This document shows positions 8,640 through 57,392 of a DNA stretch of 64,000 bases, one piece after another. The notes below the pieces were generated by a model. It worked only from the letters and a program-made list of their open reading frames with translations. It was not told the origin of the DNA and ran no database searches. Both the position numbers and the translations under genes were made by a program. Every line of letters starts with the position of its first letter. Within the stretch, counting starts at the first letter, position 1. The stretch covers positions 22,350-86,349 of the forward strand of contig JBMOHF010000003.1 in the NCBI GenBank assembly GCA_049317985.1. The letters are read 5' to 3'. This DNA is from Patescibacteria group bacterium. GTDB lineage: Bacteria > Patescibacteriota > Patescibacteriia > Patescibacteriales > UBA12465.

Positions 8640-11600
8640 TTAATCGGTCGTGAAATAACTGTCAGGAACATTGTCTGGAAATGTTTTCCAGAGACCCCAA
8701 TTATCAGTTACTTTGATCTTTATTTCCCTTTTTGTTGCTCCCGCTCCGGCGCTATAGCTGTAATTATGAGATATTGCGTGTGGTGCATTTGCGGCTGGAT
8801 GGTTATCTTGAGTATTAATTACTGATACTTGATCATCACCCCAGTTGATAATAATATTACCAAGCGGCTGTTGTTCTTTATCCACAATACTATTGAATTT
8901 GAGAGTGTAATACCCAGGAGCAATAGTCCATTCGCCGATAGTTGGGTTGGAGGCAGTTAAAGCCGCTCCAGTGCCGTTTCCTCTAAAAAGGCTGACATTG
9001 CTTATTTTTGGCATAATTGCACAAAAATCCGAGTCAGAAAAGTTGCTTACACCAAAATCGCTATTGGCATTTGGACGAGAATTCTGATTGCTACATAATT
9101 TTAACTGGTAAACGCCCTCAAATAAATCGGTACTCGTTGAATGAGAGTCATAAGCTATTCTTTTAATGGGATTATCGGGTATATAATTGCCACCATTTAG
9201 AAGAAAACCTTTGGTTGCGTCTAAAAATATATTCTTCAAAGTATTTTTTTGGTTACTACCAGTTTTGGACTCATCCTCATTCTTAAAGCCATATGAAACG
9301 CAGGGACCATCTACGCCGCTTCCAGCACAAGTAGCGGTTGTCCCGCCGCTGTTTCCGGACATAACGCAATTAATTTCCGGCTTATTTTTACAATATCCAA
9401 TAAATTGACAGGAATTTGTACTTTTAGTAACACCACCAACAATAACGTTATCAGAACAACCATATGGACGTCCAGCGAGGGGGCTTTTTTCTCCACTATT
9501 TGAATTGTTGTTGAACATCGTGCCGAATTTAATAGCAGCTTTGCCAGCAACTGATACAGTGTTAAATAATGATGCTGCGCCATATGGAGCAGTTATACCA
9601 CTAACAACTTGACCAAAACTACTAGAAGCTAGATTGAAATAAGGAACAGTGGAATAACCAAATTCGCTGATGATTGGGAAAAAGTTTGGTGAAGTGGAGG
9701 TTGGATAAACGCCTTCACTAAAGATTCTTTCCATCCATGGTTTACCAATGCCGTTACTATCAACGACCTCCACAAACTTGTTACAAGTCGGGGTAAAAAT
9801 ATCTTCAGGATCAATACCTGCCCCACTATTTATATACCATAATCCAGCGGTAGGATTATTATAATCATAGACGCGAACGGCGCTTTCATTACCAGCTAAC
9901 CCATCGTACTTATACCAACCAGCAGAATAAACGTCGACTCCTGATGTAATTCCATAATCACCATGGCTTTGAGAGCCCCATCTTGGACCTTGATAAAAAC
10001 CACCATCAACTGGCACTATTTTTACGTTTGACACAGCTCCGTTCCCCGTAAATTCCAACCTCGCGGTGGTGTTTGCATTTATTACATATCTGGTCCCCCC
10101 CCAACTTGGCTGAAATCTCATACCATGACTCCCAGCATTAATAACCACGGCAACTTTCATGTTTCCTGTATCAGGCACACAAAGAGAAAAAGTTTCACAG
10201 TGGTCCATTTCAGTATTTTCATCATCATCAAAACTATATTGATAAAAGAATTGATTGTAATTTGGGAGACAATCACCTTGCCCAGCAAAACCAGTTGGGA
10301 TATAGTCATCACTATCTCCCTGACATCCTATATCCCCCGTCGTGTCAGTCTGTTGGCGATAAGGACCACCATTACCTGTGATTCTATTCTCCACCAAATC
10401 AAACTGCGCGTTCGCTTCGGCACAATAATATAAAGGATACGTTCCACCCCTGCCAGCATAACTGGTTTTTTTAGTATTTAAGCTTGATGAAAGAATGTTG
10501 TCTAATGGTAACCATTGTAAACAAACACCCGGGTTAAGCGGATCGTGTTGCAAACAATAACCTTCCCAGCCATTTTTTACAACGCTCTGATCACGGCTCG
10601 AACAGGTCAAGCTATTGCTATCCTCTGTTGGATATAAGCGACATTCCTTTGCCAAATAATTACCTTCATCGCCGGAATGGTTATTAATTTCCAAAACTGG
10701 TTCAATTTTAATGTCATCGTAATAAACTGTACCACCAAAATCATCGCCTAATGCTTGGGACGTCCCAAAAACAATAGCGACCTTATTTTTCTGAACATTA
10801 ATTTTATGAACAACGCGTTGCCAGCCTTTTGTGGTATCTTTAAATACCTGCAAAGGAGTTCCGAGATAAGATTTGTCATCTACTATCTTCACCATCGCTT
10901 GTGGGCCAGACAATCCATCGGTATTAACTAAATAACTTATGTAATAGTTTATTCCTGGTATTAAATTTACTCCCGATTTCCCCAGCATTTTACCAGATTT
11001 AATACCAACAAAAACTTTTCCTTCGGCCGGATAAGACATACTTGGTAAAACTGATGAAGGTTCGTCAGCCAACGTGTAGTCTTGAGGTCCGACATTAGCC
11101 GTGGAAGTTGCTACGCCGCCTGAGGAAAATATCTTTAAATCGAAAGAAACGTCGTTGTCCTCAAAATTAATCGCCTTAAAATCACTAGTCGCCCCAACCT
11201 CTTTCATGTTGGCGATATTGTAGGCATTCAACAAGCTATAACCCGTCGCATTTTTATCCTGTGCGTAATTGAAAACATGAGTCGAAGTAGCACTACCGAC
11301 AAAGTTGCCGCAACCACCACCTTCGGTCAATTTATCGCATTCATTCAAACCATAGCAAGTTTCCGTGCCAGTTTTTTCATCCATCACAGCTGTAGTGCAA
11401 GAAAGCCAGCGACTACAAACTCGATTCGGCGAAACTTTCACCACCATATTGGCATTGCAGCTATTGCCAGAACAACTCGTGGCCAAGCCAGACCCAGTGG
11501 TGCTCGCAAAAGCATTATAACTCAAAGACGAAACTTGTCCCTGAATACCATTATAGGCGCGATTATTAAACAGGACACAACCATTATCAAAATCTACTTT

Positions 11601-14600
11601 TGAGTTACAAGTTTTGAGATCTACCTTATCTTCTTTTTGATACTCAACAACTGCTTCTCGAACCTCTAAAGATGCTGCACGAGCCTGGTTGAGGGTTTTA
11701 CTAGATATTCGACAAACAGAATCATATTTAAGGATAATATTAACTCCCTGGTTATTTTTTAATTCTACGGATTGGACTGAAGTAGTGGAAATATTGTTGT
11801 GAGAATCCAAAACATTAATGACTGGAGTTCCCGCAAAAGGTGTGCAACCCAAGGTATTGACTACCAATGAATTGGCCTGATCAACGCTTCTAACAATATA
11901 CAACTTTCTGGCCTTCAAATAGACATCTTGATAATAATCATTGACATTTTTTATCCACATATCCCCAATAACTCCATTTTTATCAATATCATCGAGGGTT
12001 GGATTCATCACCATATTTGGCGAAACAGCACTCGTTGCATCAATATATTCCGAGCAACCAGAGGCAGCAGTTTCGCACAAGCCTGCGTCCTTGGATGGTT
12101 GAGGAGCGCCCGCTCCAGTGTTTCCAATGGTCTTGAAATAGGAAATATCACAAGGGCGATCAGTTGTGTCGAGAGCGCAAGTTGCAGCGTGACAATCCGC
12201 ATCACTGGCACAAACAGCATTAACATCATTAAAGCCACCACCTAATAGACTTTTACATCTCTTTACTGGCTCTTTGAACCAACCCATCGCTTGGCTATTA
12301 ACATTACTGCTCGCTCGATAGCGACAAGTATTGTCACCTGGATTACGGAAGAAAGACTTTCCATTTTTACTATCAAAGAAAGTTTCACAACCTACCGCCG
12401 AGGACTGGCAGAGAGTGCCATTTGCGCCTTCGTAGTTATCCGGATTATTGATCAAGAAAACATCCGAGAAGAAAACACTAGTACCAAATTTTTTACCTTC
12501 TCCCAGTCGGCTACAGCCGATATCAGCCACTGAACATTCTTTTTCTGGGTTAAAAATGGCATAAACCATTTTGTCGCTTAAAACATTAATAGTGCTACTC
12601 GCGAAAGACTGAGCAAAAGGAGATTTTGAATTTCTGGTATCAATCATCGCCTCACAACCAGCCGACGACTCATCACAAAGACTACTAAACTGACGCAAAT
12701 TATGTTGTGTGCCATATGGATCCTGATAGGCACTGCAACCGAGATTGTATTCTGGCCCACGATAATCGCTATTTAAATCATAGTAACAGCTATCATCGGT
12801 AACCCAAGAATCTTTGATCAAATAATAACGATCAGTGACTTCAGTCACGACCAGGGAGTCAAGATAAATTTCGGAATTAGCCGCTACCACAAATTTTTCA
12901 CCCGCTTCAACTCGATGATTAAGGGCCGGCAAACTTACTTGATAAACTTTCCACTCAGCATCATCGATGTTCACGGAATCAGCACCAACTACGCCGCTAT
13001 TAAAATTAGCAACTTCGGTGCCGCTCGCATTTTCAAAATAGAATTTCAAGTTGGCATTTGGATCGGTTGCCTTCGCCAAGAATTTCAAATAGTAAGCGGA
13101 GTTTCTTGTTACATTCCCGATCATTCCAGAGGTAGGCGTTGAGGCAACACCAGTTAATTTAAGAGATTTTCCGTTTTTGTTGATTGAGATTGAGCTGGTT
13201 GCCGCTGCGCCACTAAAAGGATTGCTGTTTGATTCAAAATCATAAGTAGCAATATTATTAATATTATTACCATTACTGCCATTGTATTCTCGGCAGCCTC
13301 TCTCTGCTTCACCGCAAGCACTACTTTGACTTGGTAGAGCCCTAAAAACACAAGTTGAGCTGGCAACTTCACCGCCGTTACCGGTACATTCAGTTGGAGT
13401 GACGGTCTCATCTAAACGTAATTTGCGACAATCTGGGGTACAAGAAATTGTTTTTGAATATAGATGATAAGAAACGCCTCCGGTTTTATTGTAGAACTGT
13501 CGACAATCGGGATTGTAGTCTGGGTGACCGGCTGGCAATTTGAAAATTGCTTCACTACATTCGTTAGAATCAGAACTATATACTTTTGGTGAAAGATTGG
13601 CACCGGAGCTAGTCGCAACTAAGTTAAAGGACTTCAACTGATAACCACTCTCATCCTCACTACTCCAAGAATAGAAGACGCCACAAGTATTGTCTGGCTG
13701 GATACAACGACGCAAAGCCGAATAATATTCATTACTTTCTCCACCCTGGGTAACACTATCGAGATTGGTAAAACGAGAACAACCAGCTGAGGAGGCTGTG
13801 CAATTAGTTGCTGTTTTTGGAATAAAATAACTTGTTGAAATGTCCTGGAAATTGGTCTTACGTTGAACATAAGAATCATAACCAACACAAACATCTGGAC
13901 AGTATTCATCGAAATTAACTTTGGCAGTTAACTTGAAGTCGTCAGCCATTGAAGAGAAGGTTTGGCAACCAACTTCATCCTTATTACAAAGGCGAGCGAA
14001 ATTGTTGCAAATATCTGGAGCATTGTCTTTTAGGCGATAATCCTTTACCCCGGCAGAAAATGGATTTTTATAACATAGACCAGAAAGATACTCTGGAATT
14101 AATTTCTCTTGGGTAACAACCGGCTTATCGTTAACACTTGAGTCGCCATAATTAGACCAAGCAAAACCTGGCTCACCTGCGCCTCGATTATTTGCTTCCA
14201 ATTTAATTTTACGGAGATAAAAAGCGCCCGAGCTAACAATGGAAAAATCTAGTGAACTAATACCATCACTTGGCTTAGCGGTCAAAGAAATTGCTTGCCA
14301 AGAACCATTGTTGGCGACGGATTTGGTGACTGAATCCGGTGCACCGATCGTTAAAGTAGTAGTTCCGTTTGCGGCGTAGACTTCAGCACTCAAAGTGTAG
14401 TAATAGCCATCGATAACAGAACTATTTTCCGGGATAACAGAGAAATTTGAATCAGAAAACAAAGTTGAATTAGCAGTGAAACCAAGAACCTTCCCAGTTC
14501 CTGAGCCACTAACCACCGCATTTTCGGTAGTAACGACCGCAGAACCGGCAACTTGCCAGTGATTATTTAAGATACCCGCGGTGGAAGTTGAACCAACTGG

Positions 14601-16808
14601 ATCGAGATCAAAATTATTATTGAAAATTAAATTATCCCCCCAAGTTGGTTTAACGCGAACCAAAGAACGACAACCTTCACTGCTGGAATCGCAAGAGATT
14701 GCTTTTTCGTTCAAGAAAATACTATAAGCATTATTTCCTGACCACGAAATGGTGTTGGTCGAAGAGGCGTAAGAGCCAAAAGTAGAATACTGGCGGCAAC
14801 CAGAGTTACTGGCATCACAATCTCCGTAATCTAAAGTATTTTTTAAATAAGAAACCGTTCTACCTTTAACATCGGAGAAAGTTTCGCAACTATTGAAAGT
14901 CTGATCGCAAGAATCGCCATTAAAATCCCAAGTCCGTCGATCCGCGGTGCAATAGCCCCAGGCATCACAAACACCCTTTGTTTCATTGATACAAGTTCTT
15001 TCGTCAGCACAATAATCATCAGCTCGAGAAATAACCAAGTCCGAAGCTGGGCTAGTGGTGCCAGTCGCCATCGTAATCATTGAAAGAATCTGATTACCAA
15101 AACCAGCCTTTGCGCAACGAGTCTGTGGCACCTTTAAAACCCAATTTGGATCAATAAGATCCCGACACCAAGCCTGATTACCTTGAACTTCGGGAGATTT
15201 GAAGGTTGTATATTTATCGGTTGGGCTAAAGCAAGAAATCATGTCACCAAGAGTGACAACCATTTTTTTCTCATCAGCCTGTCTGATTGCCTCCTCCCAG
15301 CCAACTGGAATAATTCTGAATTTTCTTAAAATAATGGCGTTACGCAAGGAATATTTTTCATTAAAATCAAAAACCGTGCTATTTGCCGTTAAGACGCCGT
15401 TCTTATTCAAAGCTCCGTCATTAAGCGCCTCACCAACGGTTTTCTGAGCAGAAATGGCGTCCATGAATTTACTATCAATCACACATTCATCTGGGCTGGG
15501 ATTCTTTTGATCCTGGCAAGTTGCTAATTTTGAGAGAACATCATAGTCAGTTTGTTCTTTGAAGTTTGGAGCAAAAGTTGACATTAAGGCCTGCTGGTTA
15601 GCAAGATAATCGTAGGAACCATTAGTATTACCATCGGTAATGAAATCCTTACTGTCACTACCACCGGTCACCGTTCCCTTGTTCAAGCTATTTAAAAAAT
15701 TATCAAAGGCCGATTTTGCCAGTTGATTTAAGAAAATATTACTAGCATCAACAAAAGCATCTCCCGTTGATTGAGCTAAATTTGCAATGTATGCACCAGT
15801 TGCTGTTTTTTTCTTTTCTTCCGCCGCTCCTGGCACGTTCTTTAAATCCCCGCCGACGCCAAAAGAATCCAACCAACCGCCTTTGCCAAAAAAATTCTTG
15901 GAAGCGGTGTCGGTTTTGGCTCCGATGTCTTCGGTCATGCTCGTGCTCATCACAAGCGCGACACTCAAGTCAGAAGACTGAGTATCAAACATATTTCTCA
16001 AATTGCTATACAGTTTCTGTTGATTTGCTTCTTTTGAAAGACCAGCGCCAGTGAGATCTTCATAGGCTCCTTTAACATCCCAGGCCTTTTTCATGTCAGA
16101 CCAAGCACAATTTGGTCGAGCTGGACGAGCTTGATTTACTAAACCAAGAGATAATTTTAATCGAACAGCCAAAGATGGGGCGCAAAGATTCAAACCAGGA
16201 GAAGCTTTTCCGCCACTGCTTGTATTTGAAGCATTTCTAGCGAGAGAATTGGTATAATTATCGGTAGCAGTTTTTTCGCAGCTAATCACTGTCTTTAGAC
16301 AATTATCTTGTTTGTCATTATCAAGACCAGCTGCCGCGTCACAAGCTTGATATTGTTTATCACAATTTTTTGTTTCTCGTGTTCTCCGTTGTTCTGATTG
16401 AACATCGGCCGCAAAGCTATCAGCAAAACTCTCAATAAATTGTCCAGCGGCCTCATCGGCGATCATGCCCAAATAAGACTGTCCGTCTTTGGTGACAAAA
16501 AGTGGTTTTTGTCCGTCCGCCCCGGAACCAATCCAAGTCGCCGTGTCGACCGCAATTTTGTTAAGCGCGGTCCGCAAAGTCGCCTGGAAAGCTCCGGACC
16601 CAGCTTTTGCTAATGCTTTACCAAGCTTCTGCCAAATAGTTTGTTTGGTTGTCGCGGCAGTATCTTTGGCAGTCTGAGCAATAGTCGAAGCGTCTGATGA
16701 GACAGCGACTACCCCGGCCGCTTTGACATTTCCGCCCAACCAAAATAATCCACACAGTAAAATAACAATGAAGACAGATTTATTAAAACGCGAAGGATTA
16801 AAACGCAT
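8640..16808 (-). CDS. Giant secreted/surface Cys-rich protein (2722 aa)
   Basis: Single uninterrupted ORF. N-terminal signal/anchor VFIVILLCGLFWLGGNVKAAG. About 85 Cys by manual count. Gly/Ser/Thr/Asn/Asp-rich. Modular structure (see sub-features and findings). Confidence 0.9.
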   Translation of the reverse strand: MRFNPSRFNKSVFIVILLCGLFWLGGNVKAAGVVAVSSDASTIAQTAKDTAATTKQTIWQKLGKALAKAGSGAFQATLRTALNKIAVDTATWIGSGADGQKPLFVTKDGQSYLGMIADEAAGQFIESFADSFAADVQSEQRRTRETKNCDKQYQACDAAAGLDNDKQDNCLKTVISCEKTATDNYTNSLARNASNTSSGGKASPGLNLCAPSLAVRLKLSLGLVNQARPARPNCAWSDMKKAWDVKGAYEDLTGAGLSKEANQQKLYSNLRNMFDTQSSDLSVALVMSTSMTEDIGAKTDTASKNFFGKGGWLDSFGVGGDLKNVPGAAEEKKKTATGAYIANLAQSTGDAFVDASNIFLNQLAKSAFDNFLNSLNKGTVTGGSDSKDFITDGNTNGSYDYLANQQALMSTFAPNFKEQTDYDVLSKLATCQDQKNPSPDECVIDSKFMDAISAQKTVGEALNDGALNKNGVLTANSTVFDFNEKYSLRNAIILRKFRIIPVGWEEAIRQADEKKMVVTLGDMISCFSPTDKYTTFKSPEVQGNQAWCRDLIDPNWVLKVPQTRCAKAGFGNQILSMITMATGTTSPASDLVISRADDYCADERTCINETKGVCDAWGYCTADRRTWDFNGDSCDQTFNSCETFSDVKGRTVSYLKNTLDYGDCDASNSGCRQYSTFGSYASSTNTISWSGNNAYSIFLNEKAISCDSSSEGCRSLVRVKPTWGDNLIFNNNFDLDPVGSTSTAGILNNHWQVAGSAVVTTENAVVSGSGTGKVLGFTANSTLFSDSNFSVIPENSSVIDGYYYTLSAEVYAANGTTTLTIGAPDSVTKSVANNGSWQAISLTAKPSDGISSLDFSIVSSGAFYLRKIKLEANNRGAGEPGFAWSNYGDSSVNDKPVVTQEKLIPEYLSGLCYKNPFSAGVKDYRLKDNAPDICNNFARLCNKDEVGCQTFSSMADDFKLTAKVNFDEYCPDVCVGYDSYVQRKTNFQDISTSYFIPKTATNCTASSAGCSRFTNLDSVTQGGESNEYYSALRRCIQPDNTCGVFYSWSSEDESGYQLKSFNLVATSSGANLSPKVYSSDSNECSEAIFKLPAGHPDYNPDCRQFYNKTGGVSYHLYSKTISCTPDCRKLRLDETVTPTECTGNGGEVASSTCVFRALPSQSSACGEAERGCREYNGSNGNNINNIATYDFESNSNPFSGAAATSSISINKNGKSLKLTGVASTPTSGMIGNVTRNSAYYLKFLAKATDPNANLKFYFENASGTEVANFNSGVVGADSVNIDDAEWKVYQVSLPALNHRVEAGEKFVVAANSEIYLDSLVVTEVTDRYYLIKDSWVTDDSCYYDLNSDYRGPEYNLGCSAYQDPYGTQHNLRQFSSLCDESSAGCEAMIDTRNSKSPFAQSFASSTINVLSDKMVYAIFNPEKECSVADIGCSRLGEGKKFGTSVFFSDVFLINNPDNYEGANGTLCQSSAVGCETFFDSKNGKSFFRNPGDNTCRYRASSNVNSQAMGWFKEPVKRCKSLLGGGFNDVNAVCASDADCHAATCALDTTDRPCDISYFKTIGNTGAGAPQPSKDAGLCETAASGCSEYIDATSAVSPNMVMNPTLDDIDKNGVIGDMWIKNVNDYYQDVYLKARKLYIVRSVDQANSLVVNTLGCTPFAGTPVINVLDSHNNISTTSVQSVELKNNQGVNIILKYDSVCRISSKTLNQARAASLEVREAVVEYQKEDKVDLKTCNSKVDFDNGCVLFNNRAYNGIQGQVSSLSYNAFASTTGSGLATSCSGNSCNANMVVKVSPNRVCSRWLSCTTAVMDEKTGTETCYGLNECDKLTEGGGCGNFVGSATSTHVFNYAQDKNATGYSLLNAYNIANMKEVGATSDFKAINFEDNDVSFDLKIFSSGGVATSTANVGPQDYTLADEPSSVLPSMSYPAEGKVFVGIKSGKMLGKSGVNLIPGINYYISYLVNTDGLSGPQAMVKIVDDKSYLGTPLQVFKDTTKGWQRVVHKINVQKNKVAIVFGTSQALGDDFGGTVYYDDIKIEPVLEINNHSGDEGNYLAKECRLYPTEDSNSLTCSSRDQSVVKNGWEGYCLQHDPLNPGVCLQWLPLDNILSSSLNTKKTSYAGRGGTYPLYYCAEANAQFDLVENRITGNGGPYRQQTDTTGDIGCQGDSDDYIPTGFAGQGDCLPNYNQFFYQYSFDDDENTEMDHCETFSLCVPDTGNMKVAVVINAGSHGMRFQPSWGGTRYVINANTTARLEFTGNGAVSNVKIVPVDGGFYQGPRWGSQSHGDYGITSGVDVYSAGWYKYDGLAGNESAVRVYDYNNPTAGLWYINSGAGIDPEDIFTPTCNKFVEVVDSNGIGKPWMERIFSEGVYPTSTSPNFFPIISEFGYSTVPYFNLASSSFGQVVSGITAPYGAASLFNTVSVAGKAAIKFGTMFNNNSNSGEKSPLAGRPYGCSDNVIVGGVTKSTNSCQFIGYCKNKPEINCVMSGNSGGTTATCAGSGVDGPCVSYGFKNEDESKTGSNQKNTLKNIFLDATKGFLLNGGNYIPDNPIKRIAYDSHSTSTDLFEGVYQLKLCSNQNSRPNANSDFGVSNFSDSDFCAIMPKISNVSLFRGNGTGAALTASNPTIGEWTIAPGYYTLKFNSIVDKEQQPLGNIIINWGDDQVSVINTQDNHPAANAPHAISHNYSYSAGAGATKREIKIKVTDNWGLWKTFPDNVPDSYFTTD
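8694..9011 (-). other. PKD-like Ig-fold domain at the C-terminus of the giant protein (aa ~2600-2705)
   Basis: IIINWGDD...HAISHNYSYSAGAG..REIKIKVTDNWG follows the PKD pattern WxFGDG...H.Y...G.Y.V.L.V.D..G. Confidence 0.55.
12039..14909 (-). repeat. Protein-level array of a C-x5-G-C-x2-aromatic disulfide unit (aa 634-1590 of the giant protein)
   Basis: CDASNSGCRQYS, CDSSSEGCRSLV, CNKDEVGCQTFS, CTASSAGCSRFT, CGEAERGCREYN, CDESSAGCEAMI, CSVADIGCSRLG, CQSSAVGCETFF, CETAASGCSEYI. Looser variants: CDQTFNSCETFS, CIQPDNTCGVFY. Confidence 0.7.
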
Positions 16809-18330: not shown

Positions 18331-19287
18331 CTAAACGACATTAATAATAATTGCTAACCACGCGATAATAATCCATTGAATAATATAGATTATCGTGACG
18401 TTTTTACTCCAAAAAGTCAAAATAGACAGTGATTTAGCCGACAATCGATAGTAATTTATATTAATAATTGCCAACCAATAAACAACCACGGATACTAGAA
18501 TTAAAGCAGACCCTAGATTATGGTGCCAATAGGACAGCGTCGACGAATCAAGACTGACAAACAGTAAAATCAGACCAAGGAAAAGAACAACACCAATTTT
18601 AGCAACACAATTCCGATAAAAGCTTTGTTTATCGATTTCTCTACTTAAGATCGTGCCAAAATAATAACCAACCAATGAATAGAGAAACCAGGGGAAAAAT
18701 GGAAATACAACATATCGAGCCATACCAAAAAAAGGTTCAGTCAAATAAGTTAAGGCGGGATAAGAAAAATTAATTTGGCACAAAAATGGTGAAATTAAAG
18801 CAATAACCAGCGCGAGTGCTAAATAATAATCGGCTTTAACTTTTTGATATTTTAATAAAGCGATGCCCATTAAACTTAAACCCGCTACCTGAAGAATGTC
18901 TACTTCAAGTAAATAATCTATTGGCTGTAATTTATAAAGTATACTTTCTGGATGCTGAAGTATCCCAAAGTGTTGCAACAAAATAAGGGGTAAATAAAAT
19001 CTAATTAGAGACAAGGCATAACCCAAAATAATTAATTTTAATCCTCGAATAAACAACTGACGAGGTTTATTATTTTGCGAATGAATAATATTTGCCCCCA
19101 TTATAAACAAAAAAACTGGCGCCCCAAAAATGACTGCAATAAACAACACAATACTATCGAGAGTCGGATTATTAAATAATCCACTAAAAATCAGTTGCCA
19201 CGTATGTTGAATAATCATCAAAAAAATTGCGATTGCGCGAGCAACATCAAATTCGACATTTCTGTTTTTCAATGATTCTATTCTCAT
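18331..19287 (-). CDS. Polytopic membrane protein, acyltransferase-like (DUF1624/heparan N-acetyltransferase-like N-terminus)
   Basis: 318 aa, about 9 hydrophobic helices. N-terminal R-x-x-EFDVARAIAIFLMIIQH pattern. Confidence 0.5.
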   Translation of the reverse strand: MRIESLKNRNVEFDVARAIAIFLMIIQHTWQLIFSGLFNNPTLDSIVLFIAVIFGAPVFLFIMGANIIHSQNNKPRQLFIRGLKLIILGYALSLIRFYLPLILLQHFGILQHPESILYKLQPIDYLLEVDILQVAGLSLMGIALLKYQKVKADYYLALALVIALISPFLCQINFSYPALTYLTEPFFGMARYVVFPFFPWFLYSLVGYYFGTILSREIDKQSFYRNCVAKIGVVLFLGLILLFVSLDSSTLSYWHHNLGSALILVSVVVYWLAIININYYRLSAKSLSILTFWSKNVTIIYIIQWIIIAWLAIIINVV

Positions 19288-19291
19288 TAAT

Positions 19292-20071
19292 TTAACCTTT
19301 TATTCCCTCGACCTCAACCCCGACTGGTGCGTGATCGGACCCAGTAACTTTATCCAGAATAAATGCGCTCTTGAGGTGTTTTTTTATTTTTTCCGAAACG
19401 CAAAAATAATCAATCCGCCAGCCAACATTTCTCACCCGAGCCATCGCCCGATAGCTCCACCACGAATATTGGACTTTACTCTCATTTAAGAAACGAAAAG
19501 AATCAACAAAACCCTGCCCGACAAAAAAAGTCATCCAAGATCTTTCCTCGTCAGTAAAGCCGGGATTTCCAATATTTTCCTTTGGTCGCGCTAGGTCAAT
19601 TTCCCGGTGCGCCACATTAAAGTCACCACAAATTATGACCGGTTTCTTTTTTTCTAATTTTTTTAAATTAGAAGCAAGGTAATTGTTGTAGGATATTTTA
19701 TAATCCAGACGTGAAAGTTCATGATTTGCATTGGGAAAATAACAATTTACTAAGTAAAAATCGGAAAATTCCAAGATTTGGGTTCTCCCTTCATCATCAA
19801 AAGCAGCTTCGCCAAAGCCATTTTTGGAACTCAAGGGTGCGGGAAAACCATCGCGAACTAAAATAGCGGTACCACTGTAACCAGGGCGAGAAGCGCTATT
19901 CCAATATTCTTGATAGTCAGCGAAATCAAAAACTGAATCTTCCTGAGTGCTTTTGGAAATCTTGATTTCCTGCAAACACAAAACATCGGGCAATTCTGTC
20001 CGAAGAAAATCTGTGAATCCTTTTTTTAGTACTGCGCGGATGCCGTTAACATTCCAGGAAACAAGCTTCAT
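19292..20071 (-). CDS. xth: Exodeoxyribonuclease III
   Basis: ORF trimmed to ATG at 20071 (MKLVSWNVNGIRA). LCLQEIK, CGDFNVAH and SDHAPV motifs. Confidence 0.9.
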   Translation of the reverse strand: MKLVSWNVNGIRAVLKKGFTDFLRTELPDVLCLQEIKISKSTQEDSVFDFADYQEYWNSASRPGYSGTAILVRDGFPAPLSSKNGFGEAAFDDEGRTQILEFSDFYLVNCYFPNANHELSRLDYKISYNNYLASNLKKLEKKKPVIICGDFNVAHREIDLARPKENIGNPGFTDEERSWMTFFVGQGFVDSFRFLNESKVQYSWWSYRAMARVRNVGWRIDYFCVSEKIKKHLKSAFILDKVTGSDHAPVGVEVEGIKG

Positions 20072-20130
20072 AGAGAAATAATTATGTGATATAATAATGA
20101 TACTAAAAATTAGGTATTTTTTCAATCAAT

Positions 20131-20934
20131 ATGGATAACGAATTACAAGACCGGATTCGCCTCGCCGACATGAAAGAGCGACATAAAAATAAACTAAAAC
20201 CCTGGTATAAGAAATGGTGGGGAGTAACGATTATCATTCTTGGGGCAATTACTATTTCCTTGGTAACAATGGCCGCTATTTATGTCTACCAAAGCGCGCA
20301 AAGAATCAATGCTGACAGGACAGCTCTCTATTCCGGACAAAGACCGGAGTTAATCAAATCACTAATTGAAGGACAAGGACGTCCTTATCTTGGTAATGCA
20401 AATTCCGACATTGTTATCGTCGAATATTCAGATTTTGCTTGTCCTTACTGTAAGGAAAATCAACCAGCAATTAAGGCGATCATGAAAAAATATAGTGGAC
20501 AAGTAAAAATGATCTTCCGTAACTTAATTCTTCATCAAGATTCAGAGTATCTTTCCCTCGCGTCTTTATGCGCTGGCGAACAGCAAAAAAATGGTTCCAG
20601 TTTATTCTGGCCAATGCATGATCAGCTTTTTAATCTCCAAGGAAAAATTACGGAGACCGATTTGCCAAAAATTGCGACCGCGCTTGGGGCCGATGAAAAA
20701 ACTTTCTCCGCTTGTATGGCGAGCAAAAAGTACCTCGGCGTTTTGAGTTCCGACATGGAAACAGCGAGCACTTTGCAAATTACTGGATCACCAACTTGGT
20801 TTATTAATAACTATAAGATAGATGGTGTAGTTTCTGAAGCAGAATTGGAAAGTATGATTAAAGAATTAATTACCAACGGTACAGGAGTTGATCAAGTAAT
20901 TACCACTTCAACCTCCACCGAAACCAAAAAATAA
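20131..20934 (+). CDS. Membrane-anchored DsbA-family thiol:disulfide oxidoreductase
   Basis: 267 aa. N-terminal TM helix WGVTIIILGAITISLVTMAAIYV. Thioredoxin-fold active site VEYSDFACPYCK. Confidence 0.85.
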   Translation: MDNELQDRIRLADMKERHKNKLKPWYKKWWGVTIIILGAITISLVTMAAIYVYQSAQRINADRTALYSGQRPELIKSLIEGQGRPYLGNANSDIVIVEYSDFACPYCKENQPAIKAIMKKYSGQVKMIFRNLILHQDSEYLSLASLCAGEQQKNGSSLFWPMHDQLFNLQGKITETDLPKIATALGADEKTFSACMASKKYLGVLSSDMETASTLQITGSPTWFINNYKIDGVVSEAELESMIKELITNGTGVDQVITTSTSTETKK

Positions 20935-20935
20935 A

Positions 20936-21508
20936 ATGAAAGAAGTTAGAATCCATGGACGAGGCGGTCAAGGAGTGGTCACGGCAGCGGAGTTAATTGC
21001 AACGGCCGGCTTTTTGGCAGGATTTGAGACACAAGCCTTCCCTTTATTTGGAGTGGAAAGAAGCGGTGCGCCAATTTCTGCTTTTGCCCGTCTCTCAACA
21101 AAAAAAATTATCGCCAAAGACCAAGTCTATCACCCAGATTTTTTAATTATTCAGGACTCGACTCTCTTAAATCAAAAAAACATTTTTTCTGGAATTTCTG
21201 ACCAGACCTTAATAATCATTAACAGCGAACAAACTTCAAAAGAATTGGCGATTCAGATTAAAAAAGAATTATCGATCAAGATCCGTGAAAAAAATATTTT
21301 TGCCGCCCCAGCCACTGAGATTGCTTTGAGAATTATTGGAAAAAATATTATTAACACAGTGATTCTTGGCATTTTTGCAAAAGTTAGCCAGATGTTAACT
21401 TTAAATGACTTAGAAAAAGCGATTACCGAAAAATTTCAAAATAAAGGCCAGGATATTGTTAAAAAAAATATTCAAGCAATCAAAGAAGCTTATGATTACC
21501 AAAAATAA
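20936..21508 (+). CDS. porG: 2-oxoacid:ferredoxin oxidoreductase, gamma subunit
   Basis: 190 aa. IHGRGGQGVVTAAELIA signature. Starts 1 nt after the DsbA-like stop. Confidence 0.9.
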   Translation: MKEVRIHGRGGQGVVTAAELIATAGFLAGFETQAFPLFGVERSGAPISAFARLSTKKIIAKDQVYHPDFLIIQDSTLLNQKNIFSGISDQTLIIINSEQTSKELAIQIKKELSIKIREKNIFAAPATEIALRIIGKNIINTVILGIFAKVSQMLTLNDLEKAITEKFQNKGQDIVKKNIQAIKEAYDYQK

Positions 21509-21725
21509 TTCACTTAGCAATAAAACTGGTAATTGGCGAACTCATCGACCAGAAATTAATCACCAAAAATGTATTGGCTGTTCTTTGTGTGCAAAAATTT
21601 GTCCAGAAGTATGCATTGAAATGAAAAACCGCAAAGCGTTTGTTGATTATGATTACTGCAAGGGCTGTGCTCTCTGCGCCCATGAATGTCCTGTAAAAGC
21701 GATCGAAATGAAAGAAGATTATTAA
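21492..21725 (+). CDS. porD: 2-oxoacid:ferredoxin oxidoreductase, delta subunit (2x[4Fe-4S])
   Basis: CIGCSLCAKICP and CKGCALCAHECP motifs. ORF 21456 trimmed to ATG at 21492. Confidence 0.85.
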   Translation: MITKNNSLSNKTGNWRTHRPEINHQKCIGCSLCAKICPEVCIEMKNRKAFVDYDYCKGCALCAHECPVKAIEMKEDY

Positions 21726-21726
21726 T

Positions 21727-22893
21727 ATGGAAAAAAATTCAAAACAATTACTCGAAGGTTCAAGGGCAATCGCCTTAACCATTGCCAATATTCAACCGGT
21801 AGTGGTGAGCGCCTACCCGATCACTCCACAAACTCATATTGTGGAAGATTTAGCGACTCTTTACGCGAGCGGAAAATCTAGCTTTGAATACGTTCGCGCT
21901 GAGAGTGAGTTTTCAGCTGCATCAATTGTGATGGGTGCCAGCGCAGCTGGTGCAAGAACTTATAGCGCAACTAGCGGTCAAGGACTGCTACTGATGAATG
22001 AAGTTGTCTATTGTATTGCCGGCTTACGTCTTCCGGTTGTGATGACTGACGCGAATCGCGCAATTTCAGCACCAATTAATATTTGGAATGACCAAAGTGA
22101 TATCATGACCATTCGCGATGCAGGGTGGTTACAATTTTTTGCGGAAAACCACCAAGAAGCAGTCGACCAGCATATTCTGGCTTATAAGATCGCCGAAAAA
22201 CACCGCTTACCAGCGATGGTTAATGTTGATGGTTTTATTATTACACATTTATTTGAGCCGGTCATAATTCCGAGCGTGGCCTTAATTAAAAAATTTCTGC
22301 CAAAAAGACCAGTGAACAAAGGCGAAGTTCTTGATCCAAAAAATCCGAGCACGCTTGGTGAATTTTATGGACCAGAATATTATTTTGAGGCCAGACAGAA
22401 ACTTCACGAAGACTTGGTTGCCAGTATCAGAGATATAAATAGTGAATACAAAATATTTCAAAAGATTTTCGGCAGAAAAAATACCGAAGCGAGAATTGAT
22501 AATGGATTACTAGAATATTGTGGACCAAAAAAACCAAAAATAGTCGTCGTGGCGATGGGATCAATTATTGGCACAATTAAAGAAGTGCAAAAAGACAAAA
22601 AATATCAAGATGTGGGAATTTTGAAAATAAAGTGTTTCCGTCCCTTCCCACATCAGGAAATCCGAGAAGTTTTAAAAAATGCAAAACAAATTGCGGTCCT
22701 GGAAAAATCGAGTGGTAGTGGTAGTTTTTCTCCTTTATACTTAGAGATCTGCGCAGCACTACATAACGAAAAAATAATTATCAACAATTTTGTGGCTGGT
22801 CTTGGCGGAAGAGATATTAGCCGAGCGATTATTAAAAAAATGCTTACTTTAATTAACGCCAAAAATAAAAAACCAATTTTCCTTGGAAAATAA
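21727..22893 (+). CDS. porA: 2-oxoacid:ferredoxin oxidoreductase, alpha subunit
   Basis: 388 aa. LEGSRAIALTIANIQPVVVSAYPITPQT N-terminal signature. Confidence 0.9.
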   Translation: MEKNSKQLLEGSRAIALTIANIQPVVVSAYPITPQTHIVEDLATLYASGKSSFEYVRAESEFSAASIVMGASAAGARTYSATSGQGLLLMNEVVYCIAGLRLPVVMTDANRAISAPINIWNDQSDIMTIRDAGWLQFFAENHQEAVDQHILAYKIAEKHRLPAMVNVDGFIITHLFEPVIIPSVALIKKFLPKRPVNKGEVLDPKNPSTLGEFYGPEYYFEARQKLHEDLVASIRDINSEYKIFQKIFGRKNTEARIDNGLLEYCGPKKPKIVVVAMGSIIGTIKEVQKDKKYQDVGILKIKCFRPFPHQEIREVLKNAKQIAVLEKSSGSGSFSPLYLEICAALHNEKIIINNFVAGLGGRDISRAIIKKMLTLINAKNKKPIFLGK

Positions 22894-22933
22894 TTATCAA
22901 AAGTATTTTAAATAAAAAATAATTATCAATGTT

Positions 22934-24256
22934 ATGAATACTGGGAAGAAAAAACAAGTAATTACAAAAATCTTTGGATATGTTTTTGTGATATATTTTT
23001 TATTGACTGGGATTCTGGTAAACAGTGACCCCGCAAAAGCAGAGACTACTATAAATTGCCAATTCCACAAAGAGTGTATGGATGCATTTCCTAACTCAAA
23101 AATGTTGTGTTACGGACCAAAAGTGAAAATTGGTGAAACAATATACAAAGGCACATGTGCACTTTCAGGTACGGCAGTTATGGGTGCTGATTGCTACTAT
23201 AAAGAGGATTGCGCCGTTGGTACTTGTTTAAAACAACCTCATAAAAGTGCTGATGGCTTACAATGGTCTGGTGTTTGCGGTGAAGAAACAGGATCCTATG
23301 TTGCACCAATCCAAACAAACACTGTTTCCTCTCTAAAATTTACCCCGCAAATACCAATACCTAACACTGAAATGTCAGGTACAGTCGACGTTGGTCATCC
23401 TTCAGGCACAAAAATGGTAAGCGATCTTTTTCCAAAATATATTGGTGCATTCTATCGTTATGGTTTGTCTATTGTTGGGATTATCGCAACTGTGATGTTA
23501 ATGGCTGGCGGAATTTTATGGCTAACTTCTGCTGGTAACGATGGTAAAGTCTCAAAAGGCAAGGAAATGATTTTTAGTAGTTTAGCTGGTATTGCTCTTC
23601 TTTATGGCTCATATTTAATTCTAAGTACAATAAACCCCCAATTAATTCAATTAAAACCTTTAGAAAGCCCTGACATAACAAAAGTGGTAATTGATGTTGT
23701 GTGCTGTGATTTACCAGGAAAAAACTCCGAAATGACAACTTCCATTGACTGCCAAAAAAAAGGAGGGGCCAGAAAATCTGATTATTTTATTGAAAATAAT
23801 AAATGCGTCAGTAATGGCTGTTGCATTAAAGAAGAACTAAGTGAAGGTAGCTATAAAACTATTTATTGTCATCCTGGAGTGTTTTCAATGTGTGAACAAG
23901 AAAACGGCAGCACAAGAGTAATGTGGCATAAAGAAAAATGCTCCGATGACTTACTTGCCATGTTTTGCAACGGAACAACCGCTGATGGTGAAGATATCCA
24001 TGCAACGATTAATGAATGCGAAGGAAAAGATGACGGAGAAACTTGCACAGAAGGAACCTGCTACAGCCAAATTTGCAGAACAAAAAATGGAAAGATTAAT
24101 GAAAAATGCGGCAACGACGGCGGAATATGTAGTGTATATGTAGCCTTGCCTCCGTTATACTATCCCTCCTGTGTGAGTGGCGTGCACGACAATGTGCTTG
24201 GCGGTCAAAGTGGATCGAGTTGTGATATTGGGTTAAGGTGTTGCACCACTAAATAA
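22934..24256 (+). CDS. Cys-rich membrane protein with central T4SS-pilin-like (TrbC/VirB2-like) two-helix hairpin
   Basis: 440 aa, 28 Cys. Signal/anchor helix aa 12-30. Cys-rich N-domain. Hairpin IVGIIATVMLMAGGILWLTSAGNDGKVSKGKEMIFSSLAGIALLYGSYLILSTINP (aa ~165-242, nt 23426..23659). C-domain with CC doublets. Confidence 0.8.
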   Translation: MNTGKKKQVITKIFGYVFVIYFLLTGILVNSDPAKAETTINCQFHKECMDAFPNSKMLCYGPKVKIGETIYKGTCALSGTAVMGADCYYKEDCAVGTCLKQPHKSADGLQWSGVCGEETGSYVAPIQTNTVSSLKFTPQIPIPNTEMSGTVDVGHPSGTKMVSDLFPKYIGAFYRYGLSIVGIIATVMLMAGGILWLTSAGNDGKVSKGKEMIFSSLAGIALLYGSYLILSTINPQLIQLKPLESPDITKVVIDVVCCDLPGKNSEMTTSIDCQKKGGARKSDYFIENNKCVSNGCCIKEELSEGSYKTIYCHPGVFSMCEQENGSTRVMWHKEKCSDDLLAMFCNGTTADGEDIHATINECEGKDDGETCTEGTCYSQICRTKNGKINEKCGNDGGICSVYVALPPLYYPSCVSGVHDNVLGGQSGSSCDIGLRCCTTK

Positions 24257-24259
24257 TAT

Positions 24260-25129
24260 ATGAAAAACAAAAAACTCCTCCTCCCCGGACATAACGCCTG
24301 CGCCGGTTGCGGCCAACTGGTCGCAGTGCAAGCCGTGATGAGAGGATTGAATGAAAATACAATAGTTTCAAATGCCACCGGTTGTCTTGAAGTGACATCG
24401 TCTTCGCATAACCAAAGTGCTTGGAATATTCCGTGGATTCACACTCTATTTGAAAGTGCCGCTCCAGTGGCTTCGGGTATTTTAGCCGCTCTCAAAAAAC
24501 AAAATAAAAAAAATCTGCCAACTATTCTTGTCCAAGCAGGCGACGGAGGAACTTTTGATATCGGTTTTGGTCAAGTAAGTGGAATGTGGGAAAGAAACGA
24601 AAAGATTCTTTACATCTGTTACGACACTGAAGCTTATTCAAATACCGGAATTCAAGCTTCGGGTGCAACTCCATATGGTGCCTCAACAACCACCACACCT
24701 GATGGAAAAAATTCTATTGGTTCAACCCAAAACAAAAAAGATATGATTGGGGTTGCTCTTTCTCATGGTTTGCAATATATTGCTCAAAGCACTGCTGGTT
24801 TTCCAGATGACATTACTAGAAAAGTCAAAGCAGCATTGGAGTTTGACGGACCAACATATATCCAAATTCTTTCTCCTTGTGTTCCTGGTTGGAAAATAAA
24901 AAATGATGAAGCGGTAATGATGGGCAAATTAGCAGTCACGACCGGGCTTTACCCACTTTTAGAATATAGAAACGGACAACTTTCTTCATCTAGCATAAAC
25001 GGCTCTTTTATCGGAAAACCAGTAACTGAATATTTGAATACTCAAGGGAGATTCAAACATCTGGGCGCACCTGATTTAAAAATTATTCAAAGTATTGCTA
25101 ATAAAAACATCGAAAAATATAAAATATGA
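24260..25129 (+). CDS. porB: 2-oxoacid:ferredoxin oxidoreductase, beta subunit (TPP-binding)
   Basis: 289 aa. PGHNACAGCG signature and GDGGTFDIG TPP motif. Confidence 0.9.
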   Translation: MKNKKLLLPGHNACAGCGQLVAVQAVMRGLNENTIVSNATGCLEVTSSSHNQSAWNIPWIHTLFESAAPVASGILAALKKQNKKNLPTILVQAGDGGTFDIGFGQVSGMWERNEKILYICYDTEAYSNTGIQASGATPYGASTTTTPDGKNSIGSTQNKKDMIGVALSHGLQYIAQSTAGFPDDITRKVKAALEFDGPTYIQILSPCVPGWKIKNDEAVMMGKLAVTTGLYPLLEYRNGQLSSSSINGSFIGKPVTEYLNTQGRFKHLGAPDLKIIQSIANKNIEKYKI

Positions 25130-26481
25130 ATCAACGCTTAAGATTCGGAATAATTTCTGGCCTCTTTTCTTTATTGGCACTATTTAGTTTTGGTTTGGAA
25201 GCGAAAGCGGTCTGTGTTTGGGCTGATAGTTGTAATAGTACCTATTATTTAGATACATTAAACGGAACTTGTGGAGCTATCAACACAAAGCCGAAGCCGA
25301 ATTCTAGATGCTGCTGCGACGGAAGTGGCATTGAAAATGCCACGGCTATCTCTGCAAATTTTTCAACGTGTAGTTGGCAAAACGACTTATTAGGTAAGCC
25401 TTGTGGTTTACTTGCCGAGGGAGCGAGTGTTCAAGGTGATAGTTTCTGCGCTGACAAACAAAAAACTGGCACTGACGCCAAGTGTTGCTGCCTACCACAA
25501 ATTCCTCTCGTTGCCTCAAAGCCGGCTGCGGTTTTAAATAATCCTTTTGATAATTTAAGTATTCCTATTCCTGGCCTATACAAATCCCTCAGTTGCAAAT
25601 ATGACGATGCAACCAAAAGTTATGTCTGCCCAAAAGTTAATTGTGAGACTGGCGCTGACGGAACAGCGACTTGCGAAGTGCCATGGATCGGCCAATATCT
25701 AATTGCTATTTATAATTACGCACTCATTATTATTGGCTCCATCGCGGCAGTAACCGTGATGGCTGGAGGGATACTTTGGTTAATTTCTGGTAGCAACGCG
25801 TCGAGAATGAAAGTTGCCAAAGAAATGATCGTTGGCAGCATTAGCGGATTGGTTATTATGTTTTCTTCTTACATGATTATTTCTGTTGTTAATCCTACTT
25901 TATTAATATTTAAACCAATCAGCATTGGGTACATTGAAGAGGCAGCGCCAGATTACTCGGACAGTTCACTGGGGGCGGGAGATAATCCATTTCAAGCTGG
26001 TTGCGATGATTTCAAAAAGAATAAAAGCACTAAAGTCTGCGCAAGTTACGGCACAAAAAAACCAGCAAACTTGGTTAGTTATCAAGGGAAACAAATATCA
26101 GAGGAATTAAAAATAAAAATAGAAAAAGCGCTTAAATGCGTTAGTGATAAAAATGGCGGAAAAGTACTTTTCCGAATTTCAGCTGGATCGAGAACAGCGG
26201 AAAAATCTTTAAGCCTCTATAATGATTATATTTCCGGCAAATCAAAAATAGTAGCAGCAGCTCCTTGCTGCTCGAATCATTTAAGCGGAAACGCTGTTGA
26301 TTTAAACCGTACTGACGGAGTAAATATGATTGTTGGATATAGTGAAAAAACTAAAGCATTTATTAATAGCCAATGGGACTACGTGAAGAAAGTCGGCCTG
26401 GTCGACTGCATGACCCAGAATGGAATCCCTGGCGGGAAGATTGCCAAAGAACCTTGGCATTGGTCATTAACCGGAAATTAA
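25126..26481 (+). CDS. Cys-rich membrane protein: T4SS-pilin-like hairpin fused to C-terminal M15 (VanY/LAS-type) peptidase domain
   Basis: 451 aa, 22 Cys. Signal peptide. CCC triplets. Hairpin IIGSIAAVTVMAGGILWLISGSNASRMKVAKEMIVGSISGLVIMFSSYMIISVVNP (nt 25681..25917). M15 motifs SAGSRT, SNHLSGNAVDL, EPWHW (nt ~26098..26478). Start overlaps the porB stop (ATGA). Confidence 0.8.
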   Translation: MNQRLRFGIISGLFSLLALFSFGLEAKAVCVWADSCNSTYYLDTLNGTCGAINTKPKPNSRCCCDGSGIENATAISANFSTCSWQNDLLGKPCGLLAEGASVQGDSFCADKQKTGTDAKCCCLPQIPLVASKPAAVLNNPFDNLSIPIPGLYKSLSCKYDDATKSYVCPKVNCETGADGTATCEVPWIGQYLIAIYNYALIIIGSIAAVTVMAGGILWLISGSNASRMKVAKEMIVGSISGLVIMFSSYMIISVVNPTLLIFKPISIGYIEEAAPDYSDSSLGAGDNPFQAGCDDFKKNKSTKVCASYGTKKPANLVSYQGKQISEELKIKIEKALKCVSDKNGGKVLFRISAGSRTAEKSLSLYNDYISGKSKIVAAAPCCSNHLSGNAVDLNRTDGVNMIVGYSEKTKAFINSQWDYVKKVGLVDCMTQNGIPGGKIAKEPWHWSLTGN

Positions 26482-26487
26482 GAAATA

Positions 26488-26521
26488 TAAAAACTGACTT
26501 CAATTACGAAGTCAGTTTTTT
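26488..26521. terminator. Bidirectional intrinsic terminator
   Basis: ctgactt / aagtcag hairpin (26494..26515) with flanking A-run and T-run. It is the only terminator after the 20131..26481 gene string. Confidence 0.8.
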
Positions 26522-47408: not shown

Positions 47409-47413
47409 AAATT

Positions 47414-48571: not shown

Positions 48572-48576
48572 AATAT

Positions 48577-57319: not shown

Positions 57320-57392
57320 GGGCCCTTAGCTCATCTGGTAGAGCACCTGCTTTGCAAGCAGGGGGTGGCAGGTTCGAGTCCTGTAGGGTCCA
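57320..57392 (+). tRNA. tRNA-Ala (anticodon UGC), no encoded CCA
   Basis: Full cloverleaf folded by hand. Acceptor GGGCCCT/AGGGTCC with G3:U70. D-stem GCTC/GAGC. Anticodon arm CCTGC-TTTGCAA-GCAGG. T-arm GCAGG-TTCGAGT-CCTGT. 73 nt. Confidence 0.93.

Follow-up and report, generated by a model that had tools for sequence, protein, structure and literature searches.

Four-subunit 2-oxoacid:ferredoxin oxidoreductases of the pyruvate type (POR) are encoded in anaerobic bacteria and archaea by porCDAB or porGDAB operons, in the order gamma, delta, alpha, beta. In Patescibacteria, VirB2-like genes of the pilin family (PF18895/PF04956) have been reported from 1,948 assemblies, a VirB2 array being defined as at least two pilin-family genes in tandem or with one non-pilin gene between them (PMC12102498), and the predicted pilins of the type IV secretion system (T4SS) gene cluster of Southlakia are essential (PMC10633639). 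Here we describe a locus in which the two are interleaved. It lies in a 64,000-nt stretch of DNA, referred to below as the window (contig JBMOHF010000003.1 of assembly GCA_049317985.1, positions 22,350 to 86,349, forward strand), from a Patescibacteria group bacterium whose closest named relatives are Candidatus Falkowbacteria metagenome-assembled genomes (MAGs). As in the known operons, all four POR subunits are present in the usual order, with full-length domains, cluster cysteines and the thiamine-diphosphate motif. Here, however, an unrelated gene of 1.3 kb splits porA from porB, a further unrelated gene is coupled to porB at the stop codon, and a dsbA-like gene stands at the head, a position it holds in Patescibacteria only.

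The two inserted genes encode proteins of the same family as the patescibacterial VirB2-like arrays and the Southlakia pilins, with a signal peptide and a two-helix hairpin. With porB as the one gene between them they form a VirB2 array by the published definition, but that one gene encodes a POR subunit, part of a core catabolic enzyme, and the array lies within the operon of this enzyme. Compared with canonical pilins, the proteins are three to four times as large, with disulfide-rich ectodomains or a wall hydrolase, and they differ from T4SS-linked pilins in that no T4SS genes (VirB4, VirB6 and others) were found among the scanned open reading frames (ORFs) of the 64-kb window. A first-pass annotation, made from the sequence alone, held that no system with this architecture had been described. 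Literature on por, pilin and DsbA, on Falkowbacteria PFOR and on candidate phyla radiation (CPR) T4SS pilins indeed yielded no description of por interleaving or of a DsbA head, and neither 'pyruvate' nor 'oxidoreductase' occurs in PMC12102498; the VirB2-like arrays themselves, however, were already known from that study.

The cluster comprises seven + strand ORFs running head to tail, with intergenic distances of +1, -17, +1, +40, +3 and -4 nt, the last reflecting an ATGA shared by the porB stop codon and the start of inserted gene 2. An ORF recheck reproduced the positions, order, spacings and ATGA overlap of the first-pass annotation, a recount of cysteines in the inserted proteins returned its figures of 28 and 22, and Pfam and NCBIfam matches supported its gene identifications. 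In window coordinates the features are:

20067-20095, + strand: promoter-like site, TTCATA-17 nt-TATAAT with extended TG (TGnTATAAT), 36 nt 5' of the dsbA-like gene
20131-20934, + strand: dsbA-like gene, 267 amino acids (aa)
20936-21508, + strand: porC (POR gamma), 190 aa
21492-21725, + strand: porD (POR delta), 77 aa from ATG 21492, overlapping porC by 17 nt
21727-22893, + strand: porA (POR alpha), 388 aa
22894-22933, + strand: gap between porA and inserted gene 1, 40 nt, AT-rich
22934-24256, + strand: inserted gene 1, 440 aa, 28 Cys
23426-23632, + strand: VirB2-like hairpin of inserted protein 1, aa 165-233
24260-25129, + strand: porB (POR beta), 289 aa
25126-26481, + strand: inserted gene 2, 451 aa, 22 Cys
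25681-25890, + strand: VirB2-like hairpin of inserted protein 2, aa 186-255
25978-26475, + strand: predicted VanY/LdcB-type (LAS, M15B) zinc peptidase domain of inserted protein 2
26489-26520, both strands: predicted bidirectional intrinsic-terminator hairpin, 14-bp stem with T-runs on both strands

For porD the longest ORF begins at TTG 21456; ATG 21492 was chosen, and relatives are annotated at 77 aa. The NCBI call for inserted gene 1 is a 392-aa 'pilin' beginning at M49, which is 48 codons too short and loses the signal peptide; the 440-aa start at 22934 agrees with the homologues and restores region 22934-23078. Look-ups by exact sequence, of the inserted protein in the window and of its NCBI version, returned no contig on record. 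Inserted gene 2 carries the NCBI label 'hypothetical protein' (ACOYMB_01410). GC content is even across the whole cluster in the base-composition profile of the window, and no repeats, direct or inverted, were detected on either side of the inserted genes, hence no trace of a mobile element. In an Rfam scan the operon and its surroundings yielded no RNA element, the sole match being a tRNA-Ala at 57320.

More than 40 independent Patescibacteria contigs from NCBI, JGI, ENA and Logan, including closed or near-closed genomes such as CP066698.1 (L027), have the same arrangement, as do all the por-linked loci that look-ups of proteins led to, and the concern raised in the first-pass annotation that it might be unique to one contig thus falls away. 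All five close homologues of inserted protein 1 (33-51% identical) sit between porA and porB, in loci with dsbA-porC-porD before the insert and a hairpin-hydrolase gene after it, some of them with two inserts. A PorA-alignment scan using one genome per GTDB species, with a custom ORF caller, blastp and hidden Markov model (HMM) annotation of hairpins, gave 80 loci: 52 from outside Patescibacteria and 28 from within, 26 of the latter extending past porA. A hairpin ORF (signal peptide and two transmembrane helices) follows straight after porA in 22 of these 26 informative loci, most such ORFs carrying 12-40 Cys (the L035 insert has 762 aa and 40 Cys). Outside Patescibacteria, dsbA and inserts were absent from all 52 loci (Omnitrophota, Desulfobacterales, Planctomycetota, Methanomicrobiales and others), and wherever both genes were present (47 of 47) porA and porB were adjacent, at -56 to +238 nt, with no hairpin ORF between them. 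This comparison upholds the earlier proposal that two exported proteins had been wedged between POR subunits, and the DsbA-like gene that it placed in front heads the unit throughout the clade. About 18 further por-embedded loci came from a metagenome scan seeded by the hairpin motif alone.

Insert-free Patescibacteria loci were also seen. Three of them (L032, L033 and L036) have contiguous porCDAB with UvrA downstream, and dsbA immediately precedes these genes in L032 and L036 and lies about 3 kb ahead of them in L033. In a rough neighbour-joining tree of PorA, Patescibacteria form one clade with the insert present throughout, including on the basal branches L035 and L037, and these three insert-free loci group together as one subclade, a pattern in which the insertion appears to be ancestral and to have been lost once. 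In one further locus, L028, porA is followed by glycogen genes: at L028:10237-14076 it is directly followed by starch synthase, GH57 and APH-like kinase genes, with no porB nearby. The same starch synthase/GH57/APH-like kinase cluster occurs in the window at 46347-50043 (- strand), 20 kb away.

Gene spacing and surroundings vary across the clade. The -4-nt overlap between porB and the second hairpin gene is shared by the window and at least 11 relatives, and at least eight relatives have a -4-nt overlap between porA and the first hairpin gene, where the window has its 40-nt gap; post-porA gaps of 140-290 nt occur in L011, L022, L035 and L037. The post-porB hairpin gene is the more variable of the two, missing in L019, L022, L094, L102 and others and duplicated in L026. 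Over 15 kb, most relatives share RrnaAD, LeuRS and ExoIII genes before the cluster and RNase H, RecJ, LepA and MurJ after it. LeuRS lies between acyltransferase-3 and ExoIII-like genes in relatives (L002:1729-5991) and is missing from that place in the window (18331-20125). The insert layout is found with different flanks in L011, L014, L016 and L035, and L034 and L090 keep porA-hairpin-porB-hairpin though dsbA-porC-porD is inverted. In one sublineage (L034, L010 and L090) the inverted dsbA-porC-porD block is set apart from porA by an ExoIII-like gene, placing POR in two divergent units. The persistence of the layout in these settings, like the recurrent 4-nt overlaps, is more than synteny of the region would explain.

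Each half of the cluster also occurs without the other. L091 and L110 carry dsbA and four or five hairpin genes at the cluster's chromosomal site, after ExoIII, with no por genes there, and L092 has dsbA, a hairpin gene and a hairpin-SLT gene in an unrelated context. Judged by these three loci, DsbA and the hairpin proteins behave like a separate module. Together with the insert-free L032, L033 and L036, they leave the tie to energy metabolism weak. The first-pass annotation had tied the module stoichiometrically or temporally to energy metabolism; a stoichiometric or functional link found no backing, inserts and por each occurring alone and the POR subunits showing no clade-specific extensions. 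At L091:4072-11150, one hairpin gene is fused to Peptidase_M23 and another carries a 3D domain, with a HupE/UreJ-like membrane protein encoded after them. At L111:3-7736, a pair of neighbouring genes, each for a protein of about 1,260 aa and 92 Cys with LVIVD repeats and DUF4215, directly precedes two hairpin-SLT genes and one more hairpin gene.

The POR complement looks intact in sequence, with no sign of decay. PorC matches PF01558 at 134 bits and TIGR02175 at 183.8 bits, above cutoff; PorD matches TIGR02179 at 96.4 bits, and two CxxCxxCxxxCP motifs are visible in its translation. PorA, 57-87% identical to its relatives, contains POR_N (PF01855, 228.9 bits) and PFOR_II (PF17147, 82.3 bits). 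PorB exceeds the threshold for TPP_enzyme_C (PF02775) and can be aligned from end to end (E 2e-77) with 9bt4_C, the beta subunit of a four-subunit PFOR of known structure; the CxxC...C...C ligands of the cluster and the thiamine-diphosphate motif GDG are retained, with CAGC, TGC, GDG and PC conserved against 9bt4_C. The best-scoring models are of the pyruvate type, each below its strict equivalog cutoff (NF040682, 409 bits against 550; NF008819, 341 bits against 405), so the 2-oxoacid specificity is a predicted one. Within the insert-bearing clade, PorA, PorB and PorC contain no clade-specific extensions or insertions, only indels of 3-5 residues. The idea of a POR adapted to a membrane partner was rejected, as docking-type extensions are absent from these three subunits.

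The protein encoded at the head of the operon matches Thioredoxin_4 (PF13462, 93.2 bits) and DSBA (PF01323, 68.2 bits) and has a CPYC active site (C104-P-Y-C107). Its basic N-terminus is followed by one transmembrane helix at about aa 32-53, which by the positive-inside rule would place the catalytic domain outside the cytoplasm. The nearest solved structures are 3gyk, BdbD (3eu3) and ScsC (4gxz). It shares with the DsbA, BdbD and ScsC oxidoreductases a thioredoxin fold with helical insertion, the CxxC motif and a membrane anchor, and here too genes for Cys-rich exported proteins adjoin; unlike them, it has no DsbB, BdbC, VKOR or ScsB gene nearby and is tied to the operon of a cytoplasmic Fe-S enzyme. 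No DsbB/BdbC/VKOR or DsbD/CcdA/ScsB partner was found among the 28 scanned window ORFs of at least 150 aa, a set that leaves out eight ORFs of that size between 51368 and 62554. A transfer of electrons from DsbA to ferredoxin was considered and rejected as thermodynamically implausible. The catalyst had been called a dedicated one for the inserted proteins, a description that finds no support, as the gene also heads por operons that have no inserts.

The two inserted proteins have a core in common, composed of an FTPQIxIPG-type motif and a pair of long hydrophobic helices with a short connecting loop (WLTSAGN…AKEMI). Inserted protein 1 begins with a predicted signal peptide that looks cleavable (aa 1-36, AKA|E) and continues with a Cys domain of variable sequence (aa 42-115, 8 Cys), the conserved FTPQIxIP motif, the two-helix hairpin with the loop SAGNDGKVSKGKE, and a C-terminal Cys-rich domain (aa 257-437, 20 Cys). 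Inserted protein 2 likewise has a cleavable-looking predicted signal peptide (AKA|V), an N-terminal Cys-rich domain, the VirB2-like hairpin and a C-terminal M15B peptidase domain. By hydropathy, a signal peptide and two hydrophobic helices with a short loop are present in all orthologues. The first-pass annotation had proposed HMM classification of the two proteins, and this gave sub-threshold matches to PF18895 (T4SS_pilin, gathering score 26.6) for both, at 23.8 bits for inserted protein 1, which has no other Pfam match, and 19.2 bits for inserted protein 2, which also matches VanY at 23.1 bits against a cutoff of 25. A custom hairpin HMM scored them at 178.7 and 100.5 bits and picked out exactly these two ORFs in the 64-kb window. 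The paralogues of the inserted family evolve fast, at 27-51% identity where PorA is at 52-87%.

AlphaFold2 (AF2) models place the helices at 165-198/203-233 in inserted protein 1 and 186-221/225-255 in inserted protein 2. The model of inserted protein 1 is poor (pLDDT 62.5), with a signal helix, beta-rich Cys domains and a helical hairpin, and a Foldseek search of it against the PDB returned generic helical hairpins only, nothing at E <= 0.001. In the canonical VirB2 topology both termini lie outside the membrane. Given that topology, the Cys-rich domains and the peptidase would face outward, where the DsbA-like protein would also have its catalytic domain.

The C-terminal domain of inserted protein 2 is, according to its predicted structure, a VanY/LdcB-type M15B fold. 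It contains an R at aa ~355 and the motifs SNHLSGNAVD and EPWH, and SxHxxGxAxD and ExxH are conserved in most orthologues. As phmmer found no match for the protein among PDB sequences, a fold search was needed to place it: the AF2 model has pLDDT 85-95 within this domain, and its top 14 Foldseek hits in the PDB are all VanXYc, VanY, LdcB or DacB, with probability 0.99-1.00 and E values of 2.4e-4 to 2.1e-2. PF02557 is on record for the L002 and L008 orthologues. The fold and the zinc/catalytic motifs are those of the VanY, LdcB and DacB carboxypeptidases, but here the domain shares one polypeptide with a Cys-rich N-domain and a VirB2-like hairpin and is neither free nor lipid-anchored, and orthologues at the same position bear other types of hydrolase.

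Indeed, the hairpin and N-domain are conserved at the post-porB position while the catalytic domain is swapped: it is M15B/VanY in the window, L002 and L008, NlpC/P60 in P0047 (L136), and in P0049 (L137) a different, unassigned domain that has no Pfam match and resembles SLT only to the eye in an alignment. P0051, seen as a protein only and without its locus, has a weak glucosaminidase match in the catalytic domain. Hairpin paralogues elsewhere carry Peptidase_M15_4 (P0027), M23 or 3D (L091) and SLT (L092, L111) domains. The interchange of catalytic domains suggests that the constant element is a wall hydrolase tethered by a VirB2-like hairpin, with no single chemistry. VirB1 is likewise a wall hydrolase encoded together with pilin-family genes, but the window enzyme is no lytic transglycosylase. 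In L136 the dsbA-like gene is apparently split into 198-aa and 59-aa ORFs without a Pfam record (L136:2200-3011), possibly by a frameshift or as a pseudogene; the por-hairpin layout of that locus is intact.

All seven genes are probably read as a single transcript, from the promoter-like site to the bidirectional terminator. The site at 20067-20095 has 10/12 consensus matches and is, as a consensus match only, the best + strand candidate in the region; the divergent ExoIII-like gene ends at 20125, just ahead of the dsbA-like gene. The strongest terminator-like site, at 26489-26520, separates the operon from the convergent RNase H gene. A terminator after the last ORF had been noted at the outset as the only one, and the scan adds just two weak + strand sites, both within porA (22106-22131 and 22345-22358); none was found at the gene boundaries within the cluster. 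No Shine-Dalgarno-like motifs are evident 5' of the seven genes. On the single-transcript reading, porB would be expressed only by read-through of the first hairpin gene.

The explanation that we favour, with fair though not high confidence, is an intact por operon with hitch-hiking VirB2-like members that are co-transcribed with it, their ectodomains oxidised by DsbA and the last gene product trimming the wall locally. The operon is conserved throughout a lineage of Falkowbacteria-type Patescibacteria; in its proposed history, an ordinary porCDAB operon first had a membrane-anchored DsbA-like gene at its head and then gained VirB2-like (T4SS_pilin) hairpin paralogues, one after porA and one after porB. 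After cleavage of the signal peptide, each hairpin would leave both termini outside the membrane, where the DsbA-like enzyme could plausibly form 14 and 11 disulfides in the Cys-rich ectodomains, and inserted protein 2 would tether a VanY/LdcB-type peptidase to the membrane for local trimming of the cell wall. POR would stay cytoplasmic in its usual role, and the halves would be linked by shared, probably constitutive expression in a promoter-poor, packed genome, with no physical or obligatory partnership. A useful gene, once inserted into an essential operon, is hard to relocate without disrupting porB expression, and the insert would thus be retained whether or not the halves are coupled.

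Several points weigh against this explanation. Hitch-hiking is argued from absent coupling signals and has no positive demonstration. Among the scanned ORFs of the window there is no DsbB, VKOR or CcdA partner, so that the DsbA-like protein may act as an oxidase or as an isomerase. Neither the hairpins nor the VanY domain encoded in the window reach the Pfam gathering thresholds, and for inserted protein 1 the AF2 model is weak and the fold search gave no significant match. L091 and L110 were seen as contigs, so that the absence of por holds for the site and not for the genome. The 15-kb neighbourhood is syntenic in most relatives, which makes conservation of gene order weak evidence either way. 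Finally, a weak promoter-like match (TTATCA-18-AATAAT, 22894-22923) in the gap between porA and inserted gene 1, along with the wide gaps at this position in some relatives, leaves room for separate transcription.

Of the other explanations, the one that survives best, although we regard it as unlikely, is that the inserts are true VirB2-type filament subunits (minor or decorated pilins, or a tip) whose T4SS is encoded elsewhere. The Cys-rich domains and the hydrolase would then sit on the pilus surface, the hydrolase would be VirB1-like and the por location incidental, all of which is compatible with hitch-hiking. All 17 aligned homologues of inserted protein 1 match PF18895 and nothing else, and relatives exceed the gathering score, with 38.9 bits for the insert in the por locus of L035 and 40.7 bits for an array member in L120. 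Large Cys-rich members of the family also stand beside small pilins without Cys in the tandem arrays of L115-L135, which have up to 13 genes and as many as 42 Cys in a protein. The pilins of F-type pili expose both termini on the outside, as the inserts would, and the essential pilins of the Southlakia T4SS cluster point in the same direction. Filament subunits would nevertheless have to accommodate ectodomains of 130-200 aa at both ends, which would impede close packing; at 440 and 451 aa the inserts lie well outside the pilin size range (about 70-130 aa mature), and the scanned ORFs of the window offer no T4SS genes. The sampled arrays do not adjoin virB4 either. In L116, L118 and L120/L121, which contain 5-13 hairpin genes, both small Cys-free (about 110-190 aa) and large (up to 42 Cys), virB4 was expected alongside and not found; NTP-transferase and solute-binding-protein genes lie directly upstream, and the expectation was dropped.

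Functional coupling, in which the envelope module depends on or regulates POR, appears improbable to us. The hairpins could dock POR at the membrane, or POR electrons passing via ferredoxin, thioredoxin and a membrane relay could hold the DsbA-like protein in its reduced state, in which it would serve proteins with 11-14 disulfides as an isomerase. Several features would suit such a link: the interleaving looks ancestral and survives local rearrangements, overlapping start and stop codons flank porB, DsbA remains with por even where hairpins are absent, and the DsbA-like protein is similar to ScsC and BdbD, its CPYC fitting an isomerase or reductase. Docking, however, would have to be achieved through a cytoplasm-side loop of only ~5-13 residues and helices without conserved Cys or cofactor ligands, and by POR subunits without clade-specific extensions, while the electron route would need a CcdA/DsbD-like relay, absent from the scanned window ORFs. 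Each half moreover occurs without the other, and a useful gene in an essential operon stays put without any coupling.

It is more doubtful still that the cluster consists of independent units, with internal promoters driving hairpin 1, porB and hairpin 2 apart from dsbA-porCDA and no co-regulation. The match at 22894-22923 (9/12) in the 40-nt gap and the 140-290-nt post-porA gaps of L011, L022, L035 and L037 would agree with this, but promoter-like matches in the region are no commoner than in shuffled sequence (18 seen against 21.1 expected), no terminator-like site lies at an internal gene boundary, many relatives have the 4-nt overlap between porA and the hairpin gene, and such a split would leave the POR subunits dependent on two promoters. 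An assembly chimera or mis-join in the MAG can be dismissed, since independent contigs produced by various projects and assemblers, more than 40 in all, show the same order and the GC content is uniform.

Outside the cluster, the window holds a giant ORF of 2,722 aa at 8640-16808 (- strand) with no Pfam match; relatives have a counterpart of 2,664-2,767 aa in the same position upstream of the RrnaAD gene, and the product is probably a lineage-specific giant surface protein. At 2500-3189 (+ strand), a protein with HTH_3 and SocA/Panacea domains, an antitoxin-like architecture, is encoded after a 277-aa ORF without a Pfam match. A 211-aa protein at 42016-42651 (+ strand), amid housekeeping genes, has an MtN3/SWEET-like sugar-transporter match of 26.7 bits.

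If the coupling is purely transcriptional, the locus is a clean, datable case of envelope genes locked inside the operon of an essential enzyme in a streamlined genome, and a cautionary one for guilt-by-association annotation in Patescibacteria. The por-hairpin layout offers a practical synteny marker for Falkowbacteria-type lineages, and two annotations can be corrected, the start of inserted gene 1 and the 'hypothetical' label of inserted gene 2. The more promising lead is the recurrent module exposed here, of DsbA, Cys-rich VirB2-like proteins and hairpin-anchored wall hydrolases, a possible stand-in for VirB1. A bolder proposal, to which we give little credence, is that hairpin-anchored hydrolases, disulfide-rich hairpins and DsbA form an unrecognised envelope module that supplies the 'missing VirB1' of VirB2-type surface structures and has its expression wired to POR; if true, the surface or host-contact structures of Falkowbacteria-type lineages would be built in step with fermentative energy flux. 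A true functional link between POR and the module would join the central fermentation of these episymbionts to the biology of their surface.

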